Source: Cyanidioschyzon merolae
Taxonomy: Eukaryota
Assembly: GCA_000091205.1 (NCBI GenBank)
Contig: AP006500.2
Length of the DNA: 64,000 nucleotides
Strand: one strand, 5' to 3'
In this document: positions 47,229 to 64,000 of the stretch, in pieces
Position numbering within the stretch: position 1 is the stretch's first letter
Layout: each line of letters opens with the position of its first letter
Translations under genes and position numbers: made by a program
The notes under the pieces: generated by a model
What the model was told of the DNA's origin: nothing
What the model saw: the letters and a program-made list of their open reading frames with translations, nothing else
The model's database searches: none

Positions 47229-47396
47229 TCGAACGACGCCAACGGTATACAGTAGTGGCGACCGGCGCCCTAGACGAAACGTCTCCAACTGACGTGCAGA
47301 CGCCTCCCCGCCTTTTTGGACCGGCCACCTACTACTGCTTCCAACTTTTTCTCGTATAGTTCGACTTTGAGAGGTTGTCCAATAAAGTTCCCTCTT
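47229..47396 (-). ncRNA. candidate omegaRNA scaffold region (overlaps the 3' end of the ancestral nuclease ORF plus a short flank)
   Basis: The 3'-terminal block is far better conserved between copies 1 and 2 than the upstream coding sequence. It ends in a hairpin with an 8-bp perfect stem in the solo copy at 54379-54401. The position matches where TnpB/Fanzor omegaRNAs are encoded. No direct evidence of transcription. Confidence 0.25.
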
Positions 47397-49707
47397 CATG
47401 ACTTTGGAGGTGTTTTCTCCAGCACCGCACATCTCCGTATATTGATAGCGGCATTAAAGTCTCGGTTCACAAATTCCATACGTTTCTTCCCATTGGTAGT
47501 TGTACTTACTAGTGCACCTAGTCCTCGCACTTTCGCTCTACTTTCCATTTGCTCCTCCGTCAGCGGTCCATACTTTTTCATATCCTCAGGGCTCCTCTGG
47601 AAATTTTCCATATCCACTCTCTGAAGTGTACAACCCAGCTCATGGTGTGTGCAGGACGTTCGAAACTCATCTACAGGTATTGTAACAAAACGCCTTGCGC
47701 ACTCCTTGTACGTTCTTGTCGTTGGAGCTGGCGTAGTTCCTTTTTGGGTCTTCCAGCGCCCTGCTCCATACGCTATTACGAGCCTTTGAGTCTTGTCTTC
47801 TTTGAGGGCGCTCAACTTATTGAAAAAGTTCGCGAATGCCCGCTGCGTCCCACCGAATAGATTCATTCGCAAACGAGCCCACCGGGGCTTGATATACCCC
47901 TCCCACAGCGCATCCCAATGGGCAACACGAACTTCCATGAATTTCCGAAAAGCTTCAAAGTCCGCGCCTCGGCTCGTCACCTCGCTCGAAGATTCCAGGT
48001 GATCCTTCATTCCTGCATTCCATGCAGCAATTTTCTTCCTTGCATTCATTATACCGGACTCTCGATAGTATCTTGCTCTCGAGAACCTCAACAAATGCAT
48101 GTCTTTCAGACGTAAGTTGCCGTCAATGCAATCTTCCGCACACTTTGGTGCTGCGATGGTAATGATATTCGTGTTCCCAGGGTCCATGCCAATGACAAAG
48201 TCGTTATCCTGCACTTTCTGCGCCGCAGGACCCGCCTCGTTCTTTTCTTCATGCTTCGTCGCGTCAAGCATAAAGGCGTTATCCTGCACCTCCTGCATCA
48301 CAGGATCCGCCTCCTTCCCAACTTCATCCTTCGTCACATCAACGATAAAGTCGTTACCCTCAATCTCCTGCGCCACAGGATGCTCCTCTTTGTTTTCTTC
48401 ATGCTTCGCCGCGTCAACGACAAGCTTGTTATCCTCCACCTCCTGCGTCGCAGGTTCCGCCTCCTTCTCATCTCCATCCTTCGCCACGTCAACGAGAAAG
48501 TCATTATCCTCCACCTCCTGCGTCGCAGGATACACCTCTTTGTTTTCTTGATCCTTCGTCACGGGTGCAGCCGAGTGAGGGACTGGCCGATCTCTCTTCA
48601 ACCGCCGATAGTGTGCACACAAGGCTACTCCATCGGTTTCGATCATCCCAGTGAACAACTTTTGCTTGCTCACTCTCAGGCGTTTGAAATCGAAGATGTT
48701 CTTCCAGTACGTCTTCCGGTTTTCACCGGAGAATTCCTCCCTGCTGACACTGAACCCCGGACTGATCTCCTTAAAGATGCCGTAAAGGACGCCGGAGTCG
48801 ATAGTCTCAAAACTTGAATTGATCCTGGACAACGGATCAGCGTGGGAGCGATTCTCCAGAAGCGCAGCCTTCCCTCTCTCCGACTATTCGTTTTTTCCAC
48901 ACCCGGCTCCATGTCGGCCTTGCGTCCGTGCTTTCGGTTCAGAAACATGAAACAGCGCAGGATTAGTTGATAAAATCTCTCTTCGTGTTTTTTCATATTA
49001 GGTAATTTTCCTGTTGGACTGAGTAGCCCCAAGACCGCACGGTGCTCTTGAATAGTCGCGCGGATTACGGAAGCTCCATTTGTGCTCCTGCGTGATGTCT
49101 TCTTATCGACAAATTCGATCTCATCTTCATACTTTCGATCGTTCGTGATGCCGTTGATCATCCCCCATATTCCTTTGCGAGAGATGCCCGGGTAGAGTGC
49201 AAACACGGCGCATATCATGAAACGTTCCGGGTACATAGTTAAATGGTTCTTCAGATTCGTGAGGTACTTCTTCGGCCCGTAGGCGTAAATACACGAGTCA
49301 ACCCTGTATCGGGTACGCTCGAAGCGGTATTCGGCGTAGTTTTCGTGGAGAGCGTGCACTAGCACATTTTCCTTCCGCGCTTCCCCTGTACCAAGCATCA
49401 GGTGACGAATAAAGGTCTTGTGGAAAAACTCGTCTGGAATCTAGACCGTTTCCATGTGCGCCACATCGCGATACATCTCCCTCGCCAAATGCATCAGTCC
49501 TGACGACGTCTTGACAATACTCTTGGAGTACGAGTCGACACGTTTTTTGATAGCGTCCCGCAACTTTTCCTTGTAGGGATGCTTGATATGTCCAAGAAGA
49601 AAGGTTTTCACCACCATCTCGTCGTACAGCCGTCTTCCTTGCCGCCTTCGACGTAGGGCCTTACCGTTTCGGTCCTTCTTCTCTTCTTTTTGTTCTGGAC
49701 TCGGCAC
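47396..49707 (-). pseudogene. TnpB/Fanzor-like RNA-guided-nuclease-family gene (RuvC-I, Zn-finger-like, RuvC-III), disrupted
   Basis: Three collinear -strand ORFs (49441..49707, 48676..49398, 47396..48832). RuvC-I '[21 protein letters not shown]', 'LVIAYGAGRW', 'VTIPVDEFRTSCTHHELGC' and C-terminal 'FVNRDFNAAINIRRC' match the TnpB D...E/ZnF...DxNAAxNI layout. In-frame TAG at 49441-49443 ('METV*IPDEF' where copy 3 has 'METTEIPKEF'). Frameshift near 48700-48830, where copy 3 reads straight through. Stop is premature relative to copies 2 and 3. Confidence 0.7.
48197..48565. repeat. ~72-bp minisatellite (5 units) inside the copy-1 nuclease ORF, encoding 24-aa repeats directly N-terminal to RuvC-I
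   Basis: Units 'gtcgttatcctgcacNtcctgcgccgcaggacccgcctc...catgcttcgtcgcgtcaagcataaag' repeat head to tail. Protein repeats '[25 protein letters not shown]' etc. The last unit becomes '[14 protein letters not shown]'. Copy 2 has a single unit. Confidence 0.75.
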
Positions 49708-50151: not shown

Positions 50152-50943
50152 GTGTGGCGGCTTCTGCAGCGCTCGTCGTCAGCCACTCTTTTAAAACATA
50201 TTGTCGTTCTTCTATCAACTGTGTTTGCAGAAGACTCTACTGTAAAACGTTTGACCAGGTGTGATTCGAAACGATCGGAAATGTTGCGCAAAGTATCCTT
50301 AGTGTTCCTGGTGACCCTGCTCTACGTGCTCGCTGCAGTTGTGTCGAAGCCGGTGCGTGGGCTCTCTCAGAGCAGCACGATTGCCGAGCTGCTCGCTGCG
50401 TCTCCAAGCTCGTACCTGCAGAACGCGCTCACAAGCGGTGCGTTTCTCGTGAATAACTCAGCCGGAAGTATTCAGTTGTTTGACGTTACACAGAACTCGT
50501 TGTTAACGAGCGTGGGCCTCTCTACCCTGATATCCACGTTGAACAAGTGCGGTATCCAGGAGCTGCACGTGCAGACGGACGCGATCGAGTACGCGTACGT
50601 TGTTGAGGGTGAGGGCACTTTCACGCTGTGGTCGTCTAACGGCTCGGTGGTATTGTTGAAGGCCCCCTTGAAGCCTGGCGACGTGGCGATTATTCCAGCC
50701 GGCTGGCCGCACTTTTTCACCGGGTCCGAGACGTCCACGACGCCGCTGGTCTTTGTCTCGACATTCACCAGCGGAGAGCCACAGGTTTATTTCCTGGCTG
50801 GTGCTGGGAATCTATTCGCGAACGTGCCATCCGAGGTCGGTAGCAGTCTGTTTAATGTTACCGCGTCGCAGTACGGATCGTTTTTCAGAGCGGAATCGAC
50901 TGTGGGTGTCGTCTTTAATGAGACCTGTTTGGGGAATGCCTGA
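50152..50943 (+). CDS. secreted cupin (germin-like) protein, tentative; probable start at the Met near 50282 (signal peptide 'MLRKVSLVFLVTLLYVLAAVVS')
   Basis: 263-aa ORF; 'PGDVAIIPAGWPHFF' resembles germin motif 2 (PxGxxHxxxN-like) and 'ELHVQTDAIEYAYVVEGEG' motif 1; N-glycosylation-like sites; lies between the two young Fanzor-like elements. Confidence 0.4.
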   Translation: MWRLLQRSSSATLLKHIVVLLSTVFAEDSTVKRLTRCDSKRSEMLRKVSLVFLVTLLYVLAAVVSKPVRGLSQSSTIAELLAASPSSYLQNALTSGAFLVNNSAGSIQLFDVTQNSLLTSVGLSTLISTLNKCGIQELHVQTDAIEYAYVVEGEGTFTLWSSNGSVVLLKAPLKPGDVAIIPAGWPHFFTGSETSTTPLVFVSTFTSGEPQVYFLAGAGNLFANVPSEVGSSLFNVTASQYGSFFRAESTVGVVFNETCLGNA

Positions 50944-51094: not shown

Positions 51095-53523
51095 AAACGC
51101 TGCCGCTATCAGTACAAAAGTGGCTACCAACGCGCCCTAGACGAAACGTCTCCAACGGACGTGCAGACGCTTCCCAGTCTTTTTGGACCGGCCACCTACT
51201 ACTGCTTCCAACTTTTTCTCGTATAGTTCGACTTTGAGAGGTTGTCCAACAAAGTTCTCTCGTGTCCACTCTGGAGGTCTTTTCTCCAGCATCGCACATC
51301 TCCGTATATTGATTGCAGCGTTAAAGTCTCGGTTCACGAATTCCATACGTTTCTTGCCATCGTTCGTTGTACTCACCAGTGCGAGTAATCCCCGAACTTT
51401 CGCCCTCCTTTCCATTTGCTCTTCCGTCAGCGGTCCGTACTTTATTATATACTCAGGGCTCCTCCGACGCTTTTCCATCTCAACCCTTTGAAGTGTGCAC
51501 CCCAGTTCATGGTGTGTAAACGATGTTCGGAACTCATCTATTCGTATCGTAACGAAACGCCTTGCGCACTCCTTGTACGTTCTTGTCGTTGGAACTGGCG
51601 TGCTCCCTTTTCCGGGTACCCAGAGCCCTGCTCCATACGCTACTACAAGCCATTGGCTCGTCCCCTTTGAGGGTGCCCGACTCATTGAAAAAGTTGGCAA
51701 ATGCACGCTGTTTTCCGCAGTACAGATTCATATGCAGACGAGCCCACCTGAGCTTCGCGTACTCTTCACACACCTCCTCGTCATGAGAAACGCGAATTTT
51801 CATGAATTTCGGAAGAAAAAAAGAAAGTTCAATCGACGGCTCGTCACGTGCCTGATCGCTTCCAGATTCTCCTTCACTCTTGCGTTCCATTTCTCACTTT
51901 GATTCCTCGCATTCATCATTGCTTGTTCTCTGTACTAACTCTCTCTCGAGAACTTTAAACGACGCATGTCGCTCTGGCATAAGTTGTCGTCAGCGCCATC
52001 TTCCAAACGTTTGGGTGCTACGATGGTTATTACATTCGTGGTCCCGAGGTTAAGGCCGACGACAAGATCGTTATCCTGGGGATTATACGTGCCAGGGCCC
52101 GTCTTCTTGTGTTCGTGCTTCGGCAAGGGCGACAATGTAGATGAGGTAGGACGATCTGCCTTCAAGCGCTGATAGTGTACACATATGGATTTCCCATTGT
52201 AATCGATCGTCCCCGTGAATGCCATTTTTTGCTCGTTTTGAGGCTCTTGAAATCGAAGATATTCTTCCAGTACGTCTTCCGGTTTTCACCGGAGAATTCC
52301 TCCCTGCTGACACTGAACACCGGACTGATCTCCTTAAAGATGCCGTAAAGGACGCCGGAGTCGATAGTCACAAAACTTGAATTGATCCTGGACAACGGAT
52401 CAGCGTGGGAGCGATTCTCCAGAAGCGCAGCCTTCCCTCTCTCCGACTATTCGTTTTTTCCACACCCGGCTCCATGTCGGCCTTGCGTCCGTGCTTTCGG
52501 TTCAGAAACATGAAACAGCGCAGGATTAGTTGATAAAATCTCTCTTCGTCTTTTTTCAAATTAGGTAATTTTCCTGTTGGACTGAGTAGCCCCAAGACCG
52601 CACGGTGCTCTTGAATAGTCGCGCGGATTACGGAAGCTCCATTTGTGCTCCTGCGTGACGCCTACTTGTCGACAAATTCGATCTCATCTTCATGCATGCG
52701 ATCGTTCGTGATGCCATTGATAATTGCCCAGAATCCTTTGCGAGAGATGCCCGGGTAGAGTGCAAACACGGCGCATATCATGAAACGTTCCGGGTACATA
52801 GTTAAATGGTTCTTCAGATTCGTGAGGTACTTCTTCGGCCCGTAGGCGTAAATACACGAGTCAACCCTGTATCGGGTACGCTCGAAGCGGTATTCGGCGT
52901 AGTTTTCGTGGAGAGCGTGCACTAGCACATTTTCCTTCCGCGCTTCCCCTGTACCAAGCATCAGGTGACGAATAAAGGTCTTGTGGAAAAACTCGTCTGG
53001 AATCTAGACCGTTTCCATGTGCGCCACATCGCGATACATCTCCCTCGCCAAATGCATCAGTCCTGACGACGTCTTGACAATACTCTTGGAGTACGAGTCG
53101 ACACGTTTTTTGATAGCGTCCCGCAACTTTTCCTTGTAGGGATGCTTGATATGTCCAAGAAGAAAGGTTTTCACCACCATCTCGTCGTACAGCCGTCTTC
53201 CTTGCCGCCTTCGACGTAGGGCCTTACCGTTTCGGTCCTTCTTCTCTTCTTTTTGTTCTGGACTCGGCACTATATTTGGGTTTTTTTGGCAGCCGGCGAC
53301 ACTGGGCCTCCAGGATCGTCGACTTGCTATTTACTAGCTTTTCCGTTTTTTAGTTTTTTTTTGAAGACGGACGCGTTTCTTACGTGTCTACTATAAACCA
53401 CGAAAAACACTTGACTAGATATGTTTGAGGTGTGAAACAAAAACGAACTGAAAGACTGTACTTGGCTACGACCTGAACGGAAATCCAACTTTTTTCGGTA
53501 GAACAACACGCTACTGATCAGGA
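51095..53523 (-). mobile_element. Fanzor/TnpB-like element, copy 2 (~2.4 kb), more decayed
   Basis: Six -strand ORF fragments in shifting frames (51137..51706, 51534..51890, 51935..52225, 52162..52395, 52368..52595, 52662..52961, 53004..53270). 5' half nearly identical to copy 1 (ORF 53004..53270 = ORF 49441..49707, 88/88 aa). 3' half about 80-85% identical, with the full-length C-terminus '...FVNRDFNAAINIRRCAMLEKRPPEWTRENFVGQPLKV...RFV'. Confidence 0.65.
51137..53270 (-). pseudogene. TnpB/Fanzor-like nuclease gene, copy 2, with multiple frameshifts and the same in-frame TAG as copy 1
   Basis: RuvC-I 'DNDLVVGLNLGTTNVITIVAP', 'LVVAYGAGLW', 'IRIDEFRTSFTHHELGC', 'NRDFNAAINI'. TAG at 53004-53006 identical to copy 1. 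Confidence 0.65.
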
Positions 53524-54793: not shown

Positions 54794-55869
54794 ATGCAAG
54801 CCCTATTCGTTTCTGTTCCGCTGTACCAGGAAAGACATATTGTTTGCGCGCGCGCTGCAACTCGAGCACCGTTCCCGCTGTGTACCGAACATGACAGGTG
54901 CTTCGCAGCTCGATACCGTCACCGCTGTCACCATCCGCTGCCCGTGGGGGTGCAGCGTTCGCCTGTAGTGCGCCGGCATCGTATGCCGCATCTTCGTATG
55001 GGCCCGAAACAGTCGCAGATCGCCGTGATCACTGGCTCGTCCTCTGGGGTCGGTCTGTATGCAGCTCGCGCTCTGATCAACAAGGGCAACTGGAACATCG
55101 TCATGGCATGTCGTGACGTCGACCGGGCGGAACGTGCAGCAAACAGCGTGAACCTTCCAAAGGACGCCTATACAGTGCTGCATTGTGATCTGGCAGATTT
55201 CGCCTCTGTGTTGAAGTTTGTGAGAGCGCTATCGAGTGTGGCGCGCATCGATCACCTGGATGCCCTGATCTGCAATGCCGCAATATGGCATCCGCAGGAC
55301 AAGAAACCGCGTTTCACGGTGGGCGGCATCGAGGAAACCATGCAGGTTTGCCATCTGAGCCATTTGCTTCTCTGTGGGGAGCTGTTGCCGAAGCTGAAAA
55401 AATCGCGCAGGCGCATTGTGTTTCTGACGACTCAGACACACTCGCCGAATTCGTTGCCGGGAAAGATCCCCCGCTGGCTCGTCTCGGGGATTCGTCTAGT
55501 CTAGCCGCGGGGCTTGGTCCGCAGACGACGGACATGGTAGAAAGTGGCCCGTTTGAGCCCACAAAAGCTTTCAAAGACGCCAAAGCCGAGAACGTGTTGA
55601 CAATGAAGGCGCTCAGTGATCGATACGGCCGCGACGGGGTGACCTCTGTGGCGATTTTCCCGGGATGTGTCGCCGACAGCAACCTCTTCCGCGAAAAGCG
55701 TGGCTGGTTCCGCTACGTATTCTTCCCGATTCTTCAGAAGTACATCACTCGGCAATACTTTCCCAATGATGAGGCCGGACGCCGTGTAGCCGAAATGGCG
55801 ACCCAGGGACAGTTCTCGGACTCGGGCTCGTATTATCAGTGGCGTGGCAAATATACGGATGGGGGATAG
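54794..55869 (+). CDS. por: light-dependent NADPH:protochlorophyllide oxidoreductase (POR), with a +1/-1 frameshift at a C5 run near 55475-55480
   Basis: ORFs 54794..55504 and 55285..55869 together align to POR from memory: 'IAVITGSSSGVGLYAARAL..WNIVMACRDVDRAERAA..LPKDAYTVLHCDLADFASV', 'ICNAAIWHPQDKKPRFT', 'YKDAKAENVLTMKALSDRY', 'FPGCVADSNLFREKRGWFRYVFFPILQKYITRQYFPNDEAGRRVAEM..SDSGSYYQW'. Frames switch exactly inside 'aaagatcccccgctg'. Confidence 0.75.
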
Positions 55870-56350: not shown

Positions 56351-57670
56351 TTGAACAATATGTGGGTATTCGATATCAAACTGGGTCAACGGGCATGGAT
56401 TAATGGAAGCTCGGTAGTGAATACTCCAGCAAGATATGGAGCATTGAGCGAGTCAGGCCCGAATAGTGTACCAAGTACTCGCTATGGATCAGCTTTCTGG
56501 AACATCAGATGGACCGATTCGATCATATTTGTTGGAAATGGATACATAAACACGAGCGGCAGTTACTTTCTCAATGATGTGTTTGCATTGAGGAAAGCAT
56601 TTCCTACTCCAACACCAAAACCTACGCGGACACCCACCCCCATCTGCACCGATGAGCTCTGCGGATCTCCAGGACAGTGCATCAACCAGGACGCTTACGA
56701 GCGAGTCGGGTGCTGCTTCAACGCCCAGACAAACGCGTGCACCCTGAAGAGCGTCTCAGCGGCGTGAAGCGCTGTTCCAGTGACGCAGCGCGTCACCTGC
56801 GGTTGGAGCTACATCTACCCTGATGAGTGCACTGCGATACCGGGATGCTGCTGGCAGCCCACAGCGAACGGCATCCTCGCGCCCTGGTGCTACTACGACA
56901 TCGACCATGCACCCCAGGCTTCTGTAGCGCTGCAGGAGGTGCAGGCACCGGTTCCCGTCTGCCCGTCACCGGGAGCGCAGCGCCAGCCGTGCGGCAACGC
57001 GGGTATCAACCAGTTTACCTGGTATGCCCAGGGCTGCTGCTACGACTCGCAGGCGCAGAACCAGTGGGTGCAGAACGGCAAGCAGCAGAGCGACTTTGCG
57101 TCGAACCCGTACTGCTTCCAGCCCGAGAAGACGTGCGCGGTGGGCGAGCTTGAGCGCCAGCCGCGCACGAACGCGCTGAATCAGAACCAGCAGCTGACCA
57201 ACAATAACATCAACAACAATAACCAGTTTGTGCGTCTGCTGAACACGCTCCAGTGCGGAGAGCAGCACGGGACGCAGCGCACGAGCTACGCGCCGTAGCA
57301 GTGTCTGGAGGCTGGTTGCTGCCTGGGGCTCGGCAACGAGTGCTTCCAGCCGGTTACTGAGTACGTGTGCCAGACCTACGGGTACGTCTCGAACTCGCTG
57401 AGCGGCACGACCGGCAACGTGTCGAACTCGACGTATATTCCGTGCGGCCCGGAGTGCTGCAACGCCGAGATAGAGAACTGTACGTACAACCCGTTCAGCA
57501 ACAGCAAGAACCTGCGACAACAGCAGCAGCAGCAACAGGTGCTGTTGCCGTCATTCTGTGTATGCAAGGACCCTACAAAGCAGTGCGGGACGTACCTGAT
57601 CCCTTCGGACAACCTTGTGAACAAGGTGCGTTCCTGCCGCTCTGATCAGGAGTGCATCAGCAACGAGTGA
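56351..57670 (+). CDS. secreted Cys-rich protein with several trefoil (P-type)-like domains; exon/frame structure unresolved (three ORFs: 56351..56767, 56780..57298, 57365..57670)
   Basis: Repeated motifs 'CxxxPGQCINQDAYERVGCCFNAQTNAC', 'CTAIPGCCWQPTANGILAPWCYY', 'CGNAGINQFTWYAQGCCYDSQAQNQWV...NPYCFQP' match the trefoil pattern (R..CG..gIt...C...GCCfd...pWCF.p). Gln/Asn-rich linker. Confidence 0.4.
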
Positions 57671-58426: not shown

Positions 58427-60667
58427 GTGTTTTCTTTTCACTGGTGCAGAACCCCTTTCGTATCCTATATGCGAAAAAGATATTTTTCCATAGTGAGACT
58501 CCTGGTGGTAGTATTGGTTGTGTCGAGTACACACACAGTTCGTGGAGTTTTGTCCTCCGAAGATACTTTTTTATGGACCTGGATCGGTGGCAGTAACTCT
58601 ACCGGCAGTTCAGGTAGCTACGGTGTTCAGGGTGTGCCGAACACCAGCAACGTGCCTCCGGCGCGGTACGGTGCGGTCTTCTGGACCGGCGCTGACGGGG
58701 TGCTCTGGTTGTTTGGTGGTGGCAGCGACTTGAGAGACGTCTTCGGTGATCTCTGGAACTACAATCTAAGCACGTTCTCTTGGACCTGGGTTGGAGGCTC
58801 TGCATCCCTCAACTCTGCAGGGGTATACGGCTCCCGCGGAGTTCCCAACAAGAGCAACAATCCGCCTTCGAGGACGGAATCCGCTTCATGGAGCGACAGC
58901 TACGGAAACCTTTGGTTATATGGAGGCTGGAATTTTATCTCGGCCTATAGTGATTTGTGGATGTATAATGTATCGTCGGGCGAATGGACATGGGTGCAGG
59001 GATCCAACGAGACCAATGTTCCCCCGACATATGGTCCTCTTGGGAAGTCGGCTTCAAGCAACACGCCTGGCGGTCGTTACCAACCCGCGACCTGGGTTGG
59101 CCTAGATGGCCAGTTTTATCTCTTTGGTGGATTTAATCCTAGTGGATCTACTTACGGTGACTTGTGGCAGTATAACCCAGCGAACAACGAATGGAGCTGG
59201 ATAGGTGGCACTCAACAGCAGAATCCCTCTGGAAGCTATGGTAAGTTTCGCCAGGCATCGCCGAGCAATTATCCCGCTGGACGTCTCGGAGCCACATCGT
59301 GGCGAGACCTTGATGGGAACTTTTGGCTCTTTGGAGGTTTCGGACAGATTGAAACATTTGGCCGTCTCAATGATTTATGGCTGTACAATATCAGCTCCAG
59401 AGAATGGACTTGGATGTCTGGAAATGACAGTGTTGGTTTGGATGGGGAAGTATACGGCGAGAAAGGAGTGCCGTCATCGAGCAACACTCCGGGGTACAGA
59501 TCCTTTTCCTCTGGATTCCTAGATTCGACAAACACCCTGTATCTCTTCGGTGGTGTTTCACGCGCTGTCTGCAACGACCTGTGGACGTTCAATATAACGA
59601 GTCTTGAATGGACTTGGGTAGACGGTGACAATACAACGGATGGAGCCTATAGTTACGGCGAGCTTAACAAGACAAGCAATACAACGCTTCCACCTCCGCG
59701 ATACGGTGCAGTTCTTTGGGATACCTATCAAAACGACCCGGTCCTGTTCGGAGGCCTAGGCAACTCAGGTCTCCTTAACGACCTCTTCACATTATACATC
59801 GCAACACCGACGCCTGCACCGACACCAACACCGACACCAACACCGACTCCAATGGCATCACCGACGCCCTCCGTTACTGCAGAACCGTCGGCAACGACAA
59901 ATGTGACGCAGACCGCTGTAGGCGAAGGCTCTGCGGTCTGCTTCCCCGCGGATGCCTCGGTGCTGATCGATGGTCTGGGCAACCATCTGCAGATAAGCGA
60001 GCTTCGATCAGGTATGGCCGTAATGGGCGTCAATGGGCGCGGGCAACTGGTCGAAGATAGTGTACTAGGATGGTTGCATAACGAGGCCGGCGCTACTGCA
60101 GAGATTCTGGCGATCAAGACGCTTTCCGGAAAGCAGCTGCGTCTGACGAGACAGCATCTGGTATATCGAATGATCGAACACTCTAGAGACTTTTACGGTA
60201 TGACGACCGCTTTCTCGTGTATTTCACAGAAGCAGCAGCAGCAGCATCAGAAGCACATACGTCAGAGCCTTGAGTTGGATACCTCCGCCGTTGAGGCAGT
60301 TTTCGCGGAAGAAATCAGCGTTGGCGACGCTCTGCTGGACGTTGCTGCGCACCTGCCGGACCCCGTAGTGGCAATCGAGACCTTCGTTACGCACAATGGT
60401 CTCTATGCGCCGTTGACTCGCTCAGGGCGCTTTGTGGTCGACGGTGTTCTCGTGAGCTGCTACGGGACGTACGCATCGCATGCTGTGGCCCATGCAGTGT
60501 TGTGGCCTGCGCGGGTCAATGCTCTGCGCAAGGTATGGGGATCAGGGCTCGGCACAGAGGGTATTGTGGGTATCATGCCGTATGCAGAAAGGCTCTATCA
60601 CATTTGGACGAGTGCAGCACGTGTTTTAACGGAGGCTCGCATAAGTGTTGTAGTTGCAGCCTGCTGA
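58427..60667 (+). CDS. Kelch-type six-bladed beta-propeller fused via a (PT)n linker to a Hedgehog-type Hint (Hog) autoprocessing domain
   Basis: 746-aa ORF. Signal peptide 'MRKRYFSIVRLLVVVLVVSS'. Six repeats with 'W.W.GG' and 'LWLFGG...DLW.YN' Kelch signatures. 'TPTPAPTPTPTPTPTP' linker. Then 'AV|CFPADASVLIDGLGNHLQISELRSGMAVMGV' ... 'TRQHLVY' ... 'YAPLTRSGRFVVDGVLVSCYG', matching the Hint start (Cys-Phe), TxxH and terminal SCY motifs. Confidence 0.7.
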   Translation: MFSFHWCRTPFVSYMRKRYFSIVRLLVVVLVVSSTHTVRGVLSSEDTFLWTWIGGSNSTGSSGSYGVQGVPNTSNVPPARYGAVFWTGADGVLWLFGGGSDLRDVFGDLWNYNLSTFSWTWVGGSASLNSAGVYGSRGVPNKSNNPPSRTESASWSDSYGNLWLYGGWNFISAYSDLWMYNVSSGEWTWVQGSNETNVPPTYGPLGKSASSNTPGGRYQPATWVGLDGQFYLFGGFNPSGSTYGDLWQYNPANNEWSWIGGTQQQNPSGSYGKFRQASPSNYPAGRLGATSWRDLDGNFWLFGGFGQIETFGRLNDLWLYNISSREWTWMSGNDSVGLDGEVYGEKGVPSSSNTPGYRSFSSGFLDSTNTLYLFGGVSRAVCNDLWTFNITSLEWTWVDGDNTTDGAYSYGELNKTSNTTLPPPRYGAVLWDTYQNDPVLFGGLGNSGLLNDLFTLYIATPTPAPTPTPTPTPTPMASPTPSVTAEPSATTNVTQTAVGEGSAVCFPADASVLIDGLGNHLQISELRSGMAVMGVNGRGQLVEDSVLGWLHNEAGATAEILAIKTLSGKQLRLTRQHLVYRMIEHSRDFYGMTTAFSCISQKQQQQHQKHIRQSLELDTSAVEAVFAEEISVGDALLDVAAHLPDPVVAIETFVTHNGLYAPLTRSGRFVVDGVLVSCYGTYASHAVAHAVLWPARVNALRKVWGSGLGTEGIVGIMPYAERLYHIWTSAARVLTEARISVVVAAC
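59818..59848. repeat. (ACACCG/ACACCA)5 repeat encoding the PT linker of the Kelch-Hog protein
   Basis: direct reading. Confidence 0.9.
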
Positions 60668-63982: not shown

Positions 63983-64000
63983 AATGGGGGGAATGGGGGG
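63983..64000. repeat. telomeric repeat (AATGGGGGG)2 at the window edge
   Basis: Two perfect tandem 9-mers end the sequence. This unit is, from memory, the telomere repeat of Cyanidioschyzon merolae. It is preceded by a 3.3-kb AT-richer ORF-poor stretch typical of a subtelomere. Confidence 0.55.

Follow-up and report, generated by a model that had tools for sequence, protein, structure and literature searches.

A subtelomeric gene of Cyanidioschyzon merolae 10D joining a Kelch propeller to a Hedgehog-type Hog domain with a natural histidine at the general-base position

The 64,000-nucleotide stretch of Cyanidioschyzon merolae 10D DNA analyzed here (contig AP006500.2, referred to below as the window) was found to carry, near one of its ends, an intron-less gene for a protein of 732 amino acids (aa) in which a Kelch beta-propeller is followed by a Hog domain, the type of self-processing domain known from Hedgehog proteins. 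The gene belongs to a subtelomeric family of Cyanidiales that has been published as Kelch+Hint ("K+H"), of which it is one copy. Its Hog domain is complete: it is made up of a Hint module and a tail resembling a sterol-recognition region, carries motifs J and K and a motif similar to L, and has the catalytic set Cys491/His537/Thr560/His563/Cys664. The best explanation of the protein as a whole, and one which we consider reasonably probable, is that it would cleave itself in the endoplasmic reticulum (ER) at Val490|Cys491 with transfer to a sterol, leaving the Kelch propeller tethered to the cell surface. By analogy with Hedgehog, the self-cleavage itself is very likely, while the presence of a sterol adduct on the Kelch part is rated at close to an even chance, or slightly under it.

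An exact-sequence look-up found the 732-aa product to be identical to BAM82656.1 / XP_005538692.1 of C. merolae 10D, annotated as "similar to hedgehog protein," the gene for which sits on the 1.25-Mb chromosome (1,253,087 bp). It is not a new protein: its annotation dates back to the C. merolae genome papers, and its fusion, linker and subtelomeric amplification have all been published. In a preliminary description of the window, made from its sequence, the gene had been placed at 58427..60667 on the plus strand. This frame exists in the six-frame listing of open reading frames (ORFs), but 58427 is the first GTG under the bacterial code and the real start is the ATG at 58469. For the remainder, every structural claim made in that description about the domains in 58427-60667 was borne out by sequence, Pfam and structure comparison. 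It had not included two details which are central to what follows, namely the His in place of Asp at the general-base position and the sterol-recognition-like tail after the Hint module, and its view of such proteins as poorly studied was overstated, earlier papers having already described this very gene family along with its Kelch+Hint architecture and linker. The coordinates of the features are collected in Table 1.

Table 1. Features of the Kelch+Hog gene and its subtelomeric surroundings in the window.
Feature	Position	Strand	Basis
Decayed Kelch+Trefoil (K+T) gene of the same subtelomeric family, upstream neighbor	56354..57670	+	Pfam Trefoil 2.2e-12, frame analysis
Complete intron-less coding sequence of the Kelch+Hog protein, 732 aa and TGA stop	58469..60667	+	ORF listing, translation, exact-sequence look-up
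Signal-peptide-like N-terminus, MRKRYFSIVRLLVVVLVVSSTHTVRG, aa 1-26, cleavage point approximate	58469..58546	+	Hydropathy, paralog conservation
Six-bladed Kelch beta-propeller, aa 31-445	58559..59803	+	Pfam Kelch families, repeat dissection
Pro/Thr/Ala-rich linker, aa 446-490, TPTPAPTPTPTPTPTP...GEGSAV, up to the predicted scissile bond Val490|Cys491	59804..59938	+	Sequence
Hint module, aa 491-667	59939..60469	+	Pfam Hint, SHH alignment, AlphaFold2 model, Foldseek
Cys491, equivalent to Hedgehog C1, nucleophile for the N-to-S acyl shift; preceded by Val490, followed by Phe492	59939..59941	+	Alignments
His537, at the position of the Hedgehog general base Asp46 (Drosophila D303, human D243)	60077..60079	+	SHH and Drosophila Hh alignment, 150 relatives
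TxxH motif, Thr560-Arg-Gln-His563 (Hedgehog T69, H72)	60146..60157	+	Alignments
Cys664 in "VSCYG" (Burglin motif J), equivalent to Hedgehog C143	60458..60460	+	Alignments
Adduct/sterol-recognition-like tail, aa 668-732, predicted helical, ending ...AAC	60470..60664	+	Alignment, conservation, model helices 192-252
Telomere repeat AATGGGGGG, two units at the window end	63983..64000	+	Sequence; repeat identity from PMC1955436

The identity of the C-terminal half was established first of all by its match to a hidden Markov model (HMM). Comparison with the Pfam Hint profile PF01079, which had been set in advance as the test able to refute the assignment, gave 110.3 bits (E = 1.3e-31; curated cutoff 29.7) over positions 10-207 of the 213-position profile, a match far beyond chance. 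The best sequence match among solved structures is SHH (7e2i, E = 1.3e-8). When the Hog half was searched alone by a word-seeded method, only seven cyanidialean proteins were retrieved; other Hog proteins were reached by an exhaustive profile search, which returned 3077 cluster representatives at E<=1e-3. This number, together with the finding of Hogs across eukaryotes by Burglin 2008, is at odds with the preliminary statement that Hog proteins outside animals are rare. The nearest named relatives of the Hog half outside Cyanidiales are animal Hedgehog, warthog and Hint1 proteins.

The fold leads to the same assignment. An AlphaFold2 (AF2) model of the Hog half, built from a 79-sequence alignment (an earlier model from eight cyanidialean sequences, with a predicted local distance difference test score [pLDDT] of 35, was not used), has a pLDDT of 82 overall and above 90 in the Hint core. 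The top Foldseek matches of this model are 6tyy and 1at0, the Drosophila Hedgehog autoprocessing domain, on which it overlays with a template modeling (TM) score of 0.89 and a root-mean-square deviation of 2.1 Å (E = 2e-11). Of these, 6tyy is the D46H mutant of the Hedgehog autoprocessing domain. Inteins and bacterial-intein-like (BIL) domains appear lower in the Foldseek list, with E-values worse by several orders of magnitude (best intein 1.5e-7). Within the Hint module, after the TxxH strand and before the second half of the fold, there is a Gln-rich and poorly conserved insertion of 30-40 aa (...SQKQQQQHQKH...), located within aa 567-612 (60167-60304), which has a pLDDT of around 60 and varies in length among cyanidialean copies.

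Active-site positions were transferred from the Hedgehog residues defined in PMC12054796 through alignment to human SHH and Drosophila Hh, and a profile alignment (hmmalign) of the best 150 of the 3077 relatives agrees with this transfer; the residue counts given below refer to those of the 150 which cover the column in question. The catalytic Cys and His positions are present in both the sequence and the structure comparisons with Hedgehog. As described previously, the Hint module begins with Cys-Phe and holds a TxxH motif, both of which align with their Hedgehog equivalents: the string SAV|CFPADASVLIDG was located at aa 488-502, with Cys491 directly after the predicted cut, and TRQH at aa 560-563. 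Cys-Phe occurs in all 83 relatives covering the column. No cyanidialean copy departs from Thr560 or His563, and the His is present in 125 of 125 relatives. Cys664 is likewise invariant in the cyanidialean family (Cys in 141/150) and corresponds to C143, which is required for Hedgehog autoprocessing (PMC12054796). Overall, the five active-site positions are invariant or nearly so across cyanidialean proteins with Hog domains that are only ~52% identical.

The position which departs from Hedgehog is that of the general base. Asp is not found at position 46, where His537 stands instead, and this His is nearly invariant in the cyanidialean proteins. It is not peculiar to them, as His is the commoner residue in this column (67 relatives, against 50 with Asp), one His-bearing relative being Hint1 of Nematostella. 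Engineered D46H/D303H Hedgehog retains its structure and cholesterolysis activity and takes more sterols, according to the review PMC9163320, and D46H Hedgehog autoprocesses in human cells (PMC12054796). Since His is common in natural relatives and the engineered variants are active, His537 is credible as a general base, and a working general base is plausibly retained in the Hog domain through this residue.

The preliminary description had the protein end in "...VDGVLVSCYG." This string is indeed present at aa 657-666, but the protein runs on into a conserved tail of ~65 aa (aa 668-732) resembling the sterol-recognition region (SRR) of Hedgehog, or the adduct-recognition region (ARR) of other Hog proteins. 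In alignment to Hedgehog and Hog relatives, motif K is matched by "AHAVLWPARV" of the tail, and motif L, "G[IV]HWYAxxL," lines up with "GIMPYAERLY" (motif definitions from PMC2362128), the P, R and Y being invariant. The tail thus qualifies as an SRR/ARR in which motif L is a variant. Within Cyanidiales the tail equals the Hint core in conservation, at 51-54% between genera and 89-97% among paralogs. A further feature of the tail is a conserved ...A-A-C (aa 730-732, 60656-60664), with the Cys as the last residue, in every cyanidialean Hog protein, K+H or Hog-only, of which the C-terminus is covered; this terminal A-A-C is mostly absent from aligned animal Hog domains.

The N-terminal part is of a different nature from that of Hedgehog. 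No Pfam match to the Hedge signaling domain PF01085 was obtained in the protein, in agreement with the preliminary description, and the N-terminal 445 aa consist of Kelch repeats. On these grounds a bona fide Hedgehog ligand precursor was rejected, and the annotation "similar to hedgehog" is valid for the C-terminal half only; the restriction of hedgehog resemblance to the C-terminal half of these proteins is also stated by PMC13353863. A Kelch beta-propeller was taken to be four to seven tandem repeats matched by Kelch HMMs. Here, dissection divided the sequence into regular 67-71-aa repeats, six in number, all of which contain the motifs W[TS]W and (L/Y)FGG; the count of six blades is taken from this dissection. 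Pfam gave PF24681 at 1e-40 and Kelch_4 at 3e-31, with Kelch_3, Kelch_6, Kelch_1 and Kelch_2 also above their cutoffs, and the six-bladed propeller described earlier is confirmed. The (PT)n linker also stands as described between Kelch and Hint, beginning at aa 446, and the same Thr/Pro/Ala-rich type of linker has been reported for the family (Cho 2023, PMC9812998).

As to secretion, which the preliminary description had stated for the propeller, a hydrophobic segment was found at the N-terminus. It is the sole strongly hydrophobic 19-mer of the protein on the Kyte-Doolittle scale and is conserved in paralogs. There are 13 N-x-S/T sequons in the protein, of which 12 lie within the Kelch propeller. 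Support for a surface role comes from the hydrophobic N-terminal signal and the 13 sequons, in a protein with no other hydrophobic segment, and from the Kelch half being more divergent than the Hint module among paralogs.

On the basis of the established Hedgehog mechanism (PMC9163320, PMC12054796), the following course of events may be proposed. The protein would enter the ER, in the lumen of which the Hog domain would fold. Cys491 would then attack the carbonyl of Val490 in an N-to-S acyl shift helped by Thr560 and His563 of the TxxH motif, and Cys664 may join as a branched thioester. The thioester would be resolved by the 3-OH of a membrane sterol, bound by the C-terminal tail and activated by His537 in replacement of the Hedgehog Asp. 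This would release the Hog domain and leave the glycosylated Kelch propeller, on its PT stalk, ester-linked to the sterol. Tethered in this way on the outside of the plasma membrane, the propeller would contribute to the surface coat that covers the haploid cell, which has no wall, and the multiple diverging subtelomeric copies would supply variants of its exposed face. C. merolae is predicted to make sterols via cycloartenol (PMC2817430), and strain 10D is wall-less (PMC13353863). In view of these two points and of the mostly haploid expression of Hog genes, a lipid-tethered surface coat is a coherent reading.

Several points weigh against sterol-mediated tethering. The residue at -1 is Val490 (Lys in one Cyanidiococcus copy), while Gly occupies this position in 47 of 73 relatives, so that the predicted Gly-Cys-Phe processing site of Hog proteins is present as a Val-Cys-Phe variant; with Val in place of the near-universal Gly, the acyl shift might proceed more slowly or differently. 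Motif L has changed (GIMPYA vs. GIHWYA) and the tail was modeled at moderate confidence (pLDDT 55-79), for which reasons the adduct could be other than a sterol, or simply water. The N-terminus was judged to be signal-peptide-like by eye and hydropathy alone. According to PMC2817430, the sterols of C. merolae have not been chemically characterized. Hog-domain genes are H3K27me3 (histone H3 lysine 27 trimethylation) targets and moderately repressed (Mikulski 2017, PMC5405695). Finally, a literature search found no experiment on any cyanidialean Hog protein, which makes cleavage, adduct and localization predictions.

The main rival is cleavage by hydrolysis. Here self-cleavage would occur without lipid transfer, the Val490-Cys491 thioester being hydrolyzed or hit by a small soluble nucleophile, so that the Hog domain would act as a built-in protease and a soluble secreted Kelch glycoprotein would result. 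This would need the same catalytic residues as sterol transfer, and both the changed motif L and the lower confidence of the modeled tail are in keeping with it, as is the fact that the term ARR was coined by Burglin because the adduct of non-Hedgehog Hogs was unknown. However, a ~65-aa tail which is conserved like the Hint core and keeps motif K along with the invariant Pro, Arg and Tyr is hard to explain without adduct recognition. His537 has moreover been retained, and the general base serves the transfer step and not thioester formation (PMC9163320). Hydrolysis is for these reasons considered unlikely, though it is to be taken seriously.

A second alternative is loss of function, either through a Hog domain without catalytic activity, so that the protein remains uncleaved, or through decay of the gene, which would then be a silenced subtelomeric copy turning into a pseudogene. 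The Val at -1, the H3K27me3 and moderate repression carried by the family (PMC5405695) and the visible decay of the adjoining upstream family member could all be read in this way. Against this, the frame is intact across 732 codons, all five active-site positions are conserved across genera, and transcript and proteome evidence for Hog genes in the group has been reported (PMC13353863). We regard this alternative as improbable. That the domain is an intein or BIL element which splices or rearranges its host protein is extremely improbable and effectively refuted by the sequence: although the Hint fold is held in common, with inteins and BIL domains lower in the Foldseek list, and these genes are loosely called "intein-containing" in PMC5405695, there is no splice junction or C-extein, the protein ending 68 residues past the motif-J Cys664 in ...AAC; motif J "SCY" is followed by SRR motifs K and L instead of a motif G with terminal Asn and nucleophile; Hedgehog structures match better than the best intein by the values given above; and by sequence the domain is closest to Hedgehog and Hog proteins.

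"Hedgehog protein," trefoil-factor and protochlorophyllide-oxidoreductase genes were reported at C. merolae chromosome termini by Nozaki 2007 (PMC1955436). Cho 2023 (PMC9812998) counted 11 K+H copies in Cyanidioschyzon and 3 in Cyanidiococcus, these being the most prevalent subtelomeric duplications in Cyanidiales. In the 2026 Plant Cell account (PMC13353863), the family was reclassified as non-Hedgehog Hog proteins after Burglin 2008, with 17 Hog genes in C. merolae; it is also reported there that most Hog genes of Cyanidiophyceae have their main expression in the haploid stage, which proteome data from Cyanidiococcus support. In our homolog search, Kelch+Hint fusions were found only in Cyanidioschyzon, Cyanidiococcus and a few Joint Genome Institute (JGI) metagenome proteins. 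At least four further C. merolae paralogs are 88-91% identical to the window protein, and among C. merolae paralogs the Kelch half is 85-89% identical vs. 92-97% for the Hint module. The chromosome-end positions of the C. merolae paralogs are those given by Nozaki 2007 and Cho 2023, and in Cyanidiococcus 4.1 kb separate the K+H gene P0059 from the end of its contig.

The two halves do not appear to have always traveled together. In one metagenome protein (P0007) the Kelch half is 69% identical to that of Cyanidiococcus P0044 and 41% to that of the window protein, whereas the Hog half is 53% identical to P0044 and 73% to the window protein. The identities of the halves being opposed, their histories are discordant, and this suggests recombination among subtelomeric cassettes, in which Kelch and Hog cassettes may have been exchanged independently, presumably at the repetitive PT linker. 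The relatives of the Kelch half were taken from the homolog search and from a prokaryote-only contig collection (loci L001-L017). Its best non-cyanidialean matches are all prokaryotic or metagenomic, coming from Acidobacteria (Terracidiphilus), Bacteroidia and Asgard metagenome-assembled genomes (MAGs), at 35-43% identity over ~410-450 aa, which hints that the Kelch propeller is possibly bacterial in origin and horizontally acquired.

Taken further, these observations allow a more extended proposal, which is offered as tentative and on balance doubtful. The K+H proteins would form a Hog system in which the general base has been swapped naturally (His for Asp) and which attaches plant-type sterols, and not cholesterol specifically, to a variable Kelch glycoprotein, giving a lipid-anchored, Pro/Thr-stalked coat of the wall-less haploid cell, with the Kelch face diversified by subtelomeric cassette recombination and the Kelch module maybe derived from acidophilic bacteria. 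If this is true, sterol-esterification of proteins by Hog domains would be an ancient and general eukaryotic device for membrane anchoring, testable in a genetically tractable unicell. Apparently no Hog domain outside animals has an identified adduct in the literature. In this family no Hedgehog catalytic position has been lost, the general base being a natural His, and sterol-recognition motifs are retained as well, all this in a genetically manipulable alga. The family is for this reason a good place to ask whether the attachment of sterols to proteins predates animals, and what role a Hog-processed surface protein has in a single cell.

The subtelomeric location given in the preliminary description was also confirmed. 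The repeat AATGGGGGG is the C. merolae telomere unit (PMC1955436), and its presence at the end of the window places the stop codon of the Kelch+Hog gene 3.3 kb from the chromosome end. The K+T gene immediately upstream occupies a single frame, in which the last Kelch blade is followed by a PT linker (56600-56641) and then by trefoil domains; it is interrupted by in-frame stops at 56765-56767 and 57296-57298, and has neither blades 1-5 nor a signal peptide.

Other ORFs were noted in the same region. Two plus-strand ORFs that overlap in different frames (54794-55504 and 55285-55869), the first of which has a short-chain dehydrogenase match (Pfam adh_short 1.7e-16), may together (54794-55869) represent a frameshifted copy of the subtelomeric protochlorophyllide-oxidoreductase gene, an identity which is a guess. 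A cupin/germin-like ORF at 50152-50943 (+) (Pfam Cupin_1 4.9e-18) contains an internal Met followed by a signal-peptide-like stretch (MLRKVSLVFLVTLLYVLAAVV...), which adds one more probably secreted product to those encoded in the distal 14 kb of the chromosome. On the minus strand, two related ORFs (47396-48832 and 51137-51706) have C-termini "...DEFRTS...NRDFNAAINIRRC" resembling the RuvC end of TnpB/Fanzor; Pfam gave them only a sub-threshold Cas12f1-like_TNB match (E = 0.02-0.2), and no PDB sequence match was obtained. As the Fanzor1 element CMe-1A is present at ~150 copies in C. merolae (Bao & Jurka 2013), these two ORFs are probably CMe-1A copies.

In comparison with known systems, the window gene is a member of the Cyanidiales family referred to as "hedgehog protein" by Nozaki 2007, "K+H" by Cho 2023 and "K + Hog" in Plant Cell 2026. 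It shares with these genes the Kelch repeats, the Thr/Pro/Ala linker, the Hint module, the subtelomeric position and the adjoining trefoil-family gene, and there is no difference in kind between them. To those published accounts the present analysis appears to add three things: a reading of the active site (His general base, Val at -1, C143, motifs K and L), the structural comparison, and the discordance between the histories of the Kelch half and the Hog half. For the planning of biochemistry, the natural His at the general-base position and its frequency among Hog relatives, the Val at -1, the retention of motifs J, K and an L-like motif and the mosaic histories could be useful, although they leave the classification of the gene as it is.

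The Kelch half has the same long-blade repeat as secreted Kelch propellers of prokaryotes, namely those of Terracidiphilus, of Bacteroidota with sorting by the type IX secretion system (T9SS) and of Asgard MAGs, which are often auto-named "N-acetylneuraminic acid mutarotase." These prokaryotic relatives do not have a Hog domain and carry other C-terminal modules (PF18962, PF18998 and others).

The non-Hedgehog Hogs of Burglin 2008 (Hoglet, the nematode warthog, groundhog and quahog proteins, and those of a red alga, moss and alveolates) have the same modular arrangement of a secreted, lineage-specific N-terminal domain followed by Hog. Kelch is not mentioned in the text of that paper, and a Kelch cargo is thus not described there. 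In the Hogs of multicellular red algae and moss the motif-J cysteine is replaced by Ser, Thr or Asp (Burglin), whereas the cyanidialean Hog retains Cys664 and is on this account nearer to the animal consensus for motif J. With the animal Hedgehog C-terminal (HhC) or Hog domain (1AT0, 6TYY, PF01079) it shares the fold, C1-F2, TxxH, C143, SRR motif K and an L-like motif, and entry into the secretory pathway is apparently alike. It differs from animal HhC in its cargo, which is a Kelch propeller on a PT stalk and not a Hedge domain, in the Val for Gly at -1 and the Gln-rich insertion in the Hint module, and in the His for Asp at the general base, which makes it a natural counterpart of the engineered D46H enzyme.

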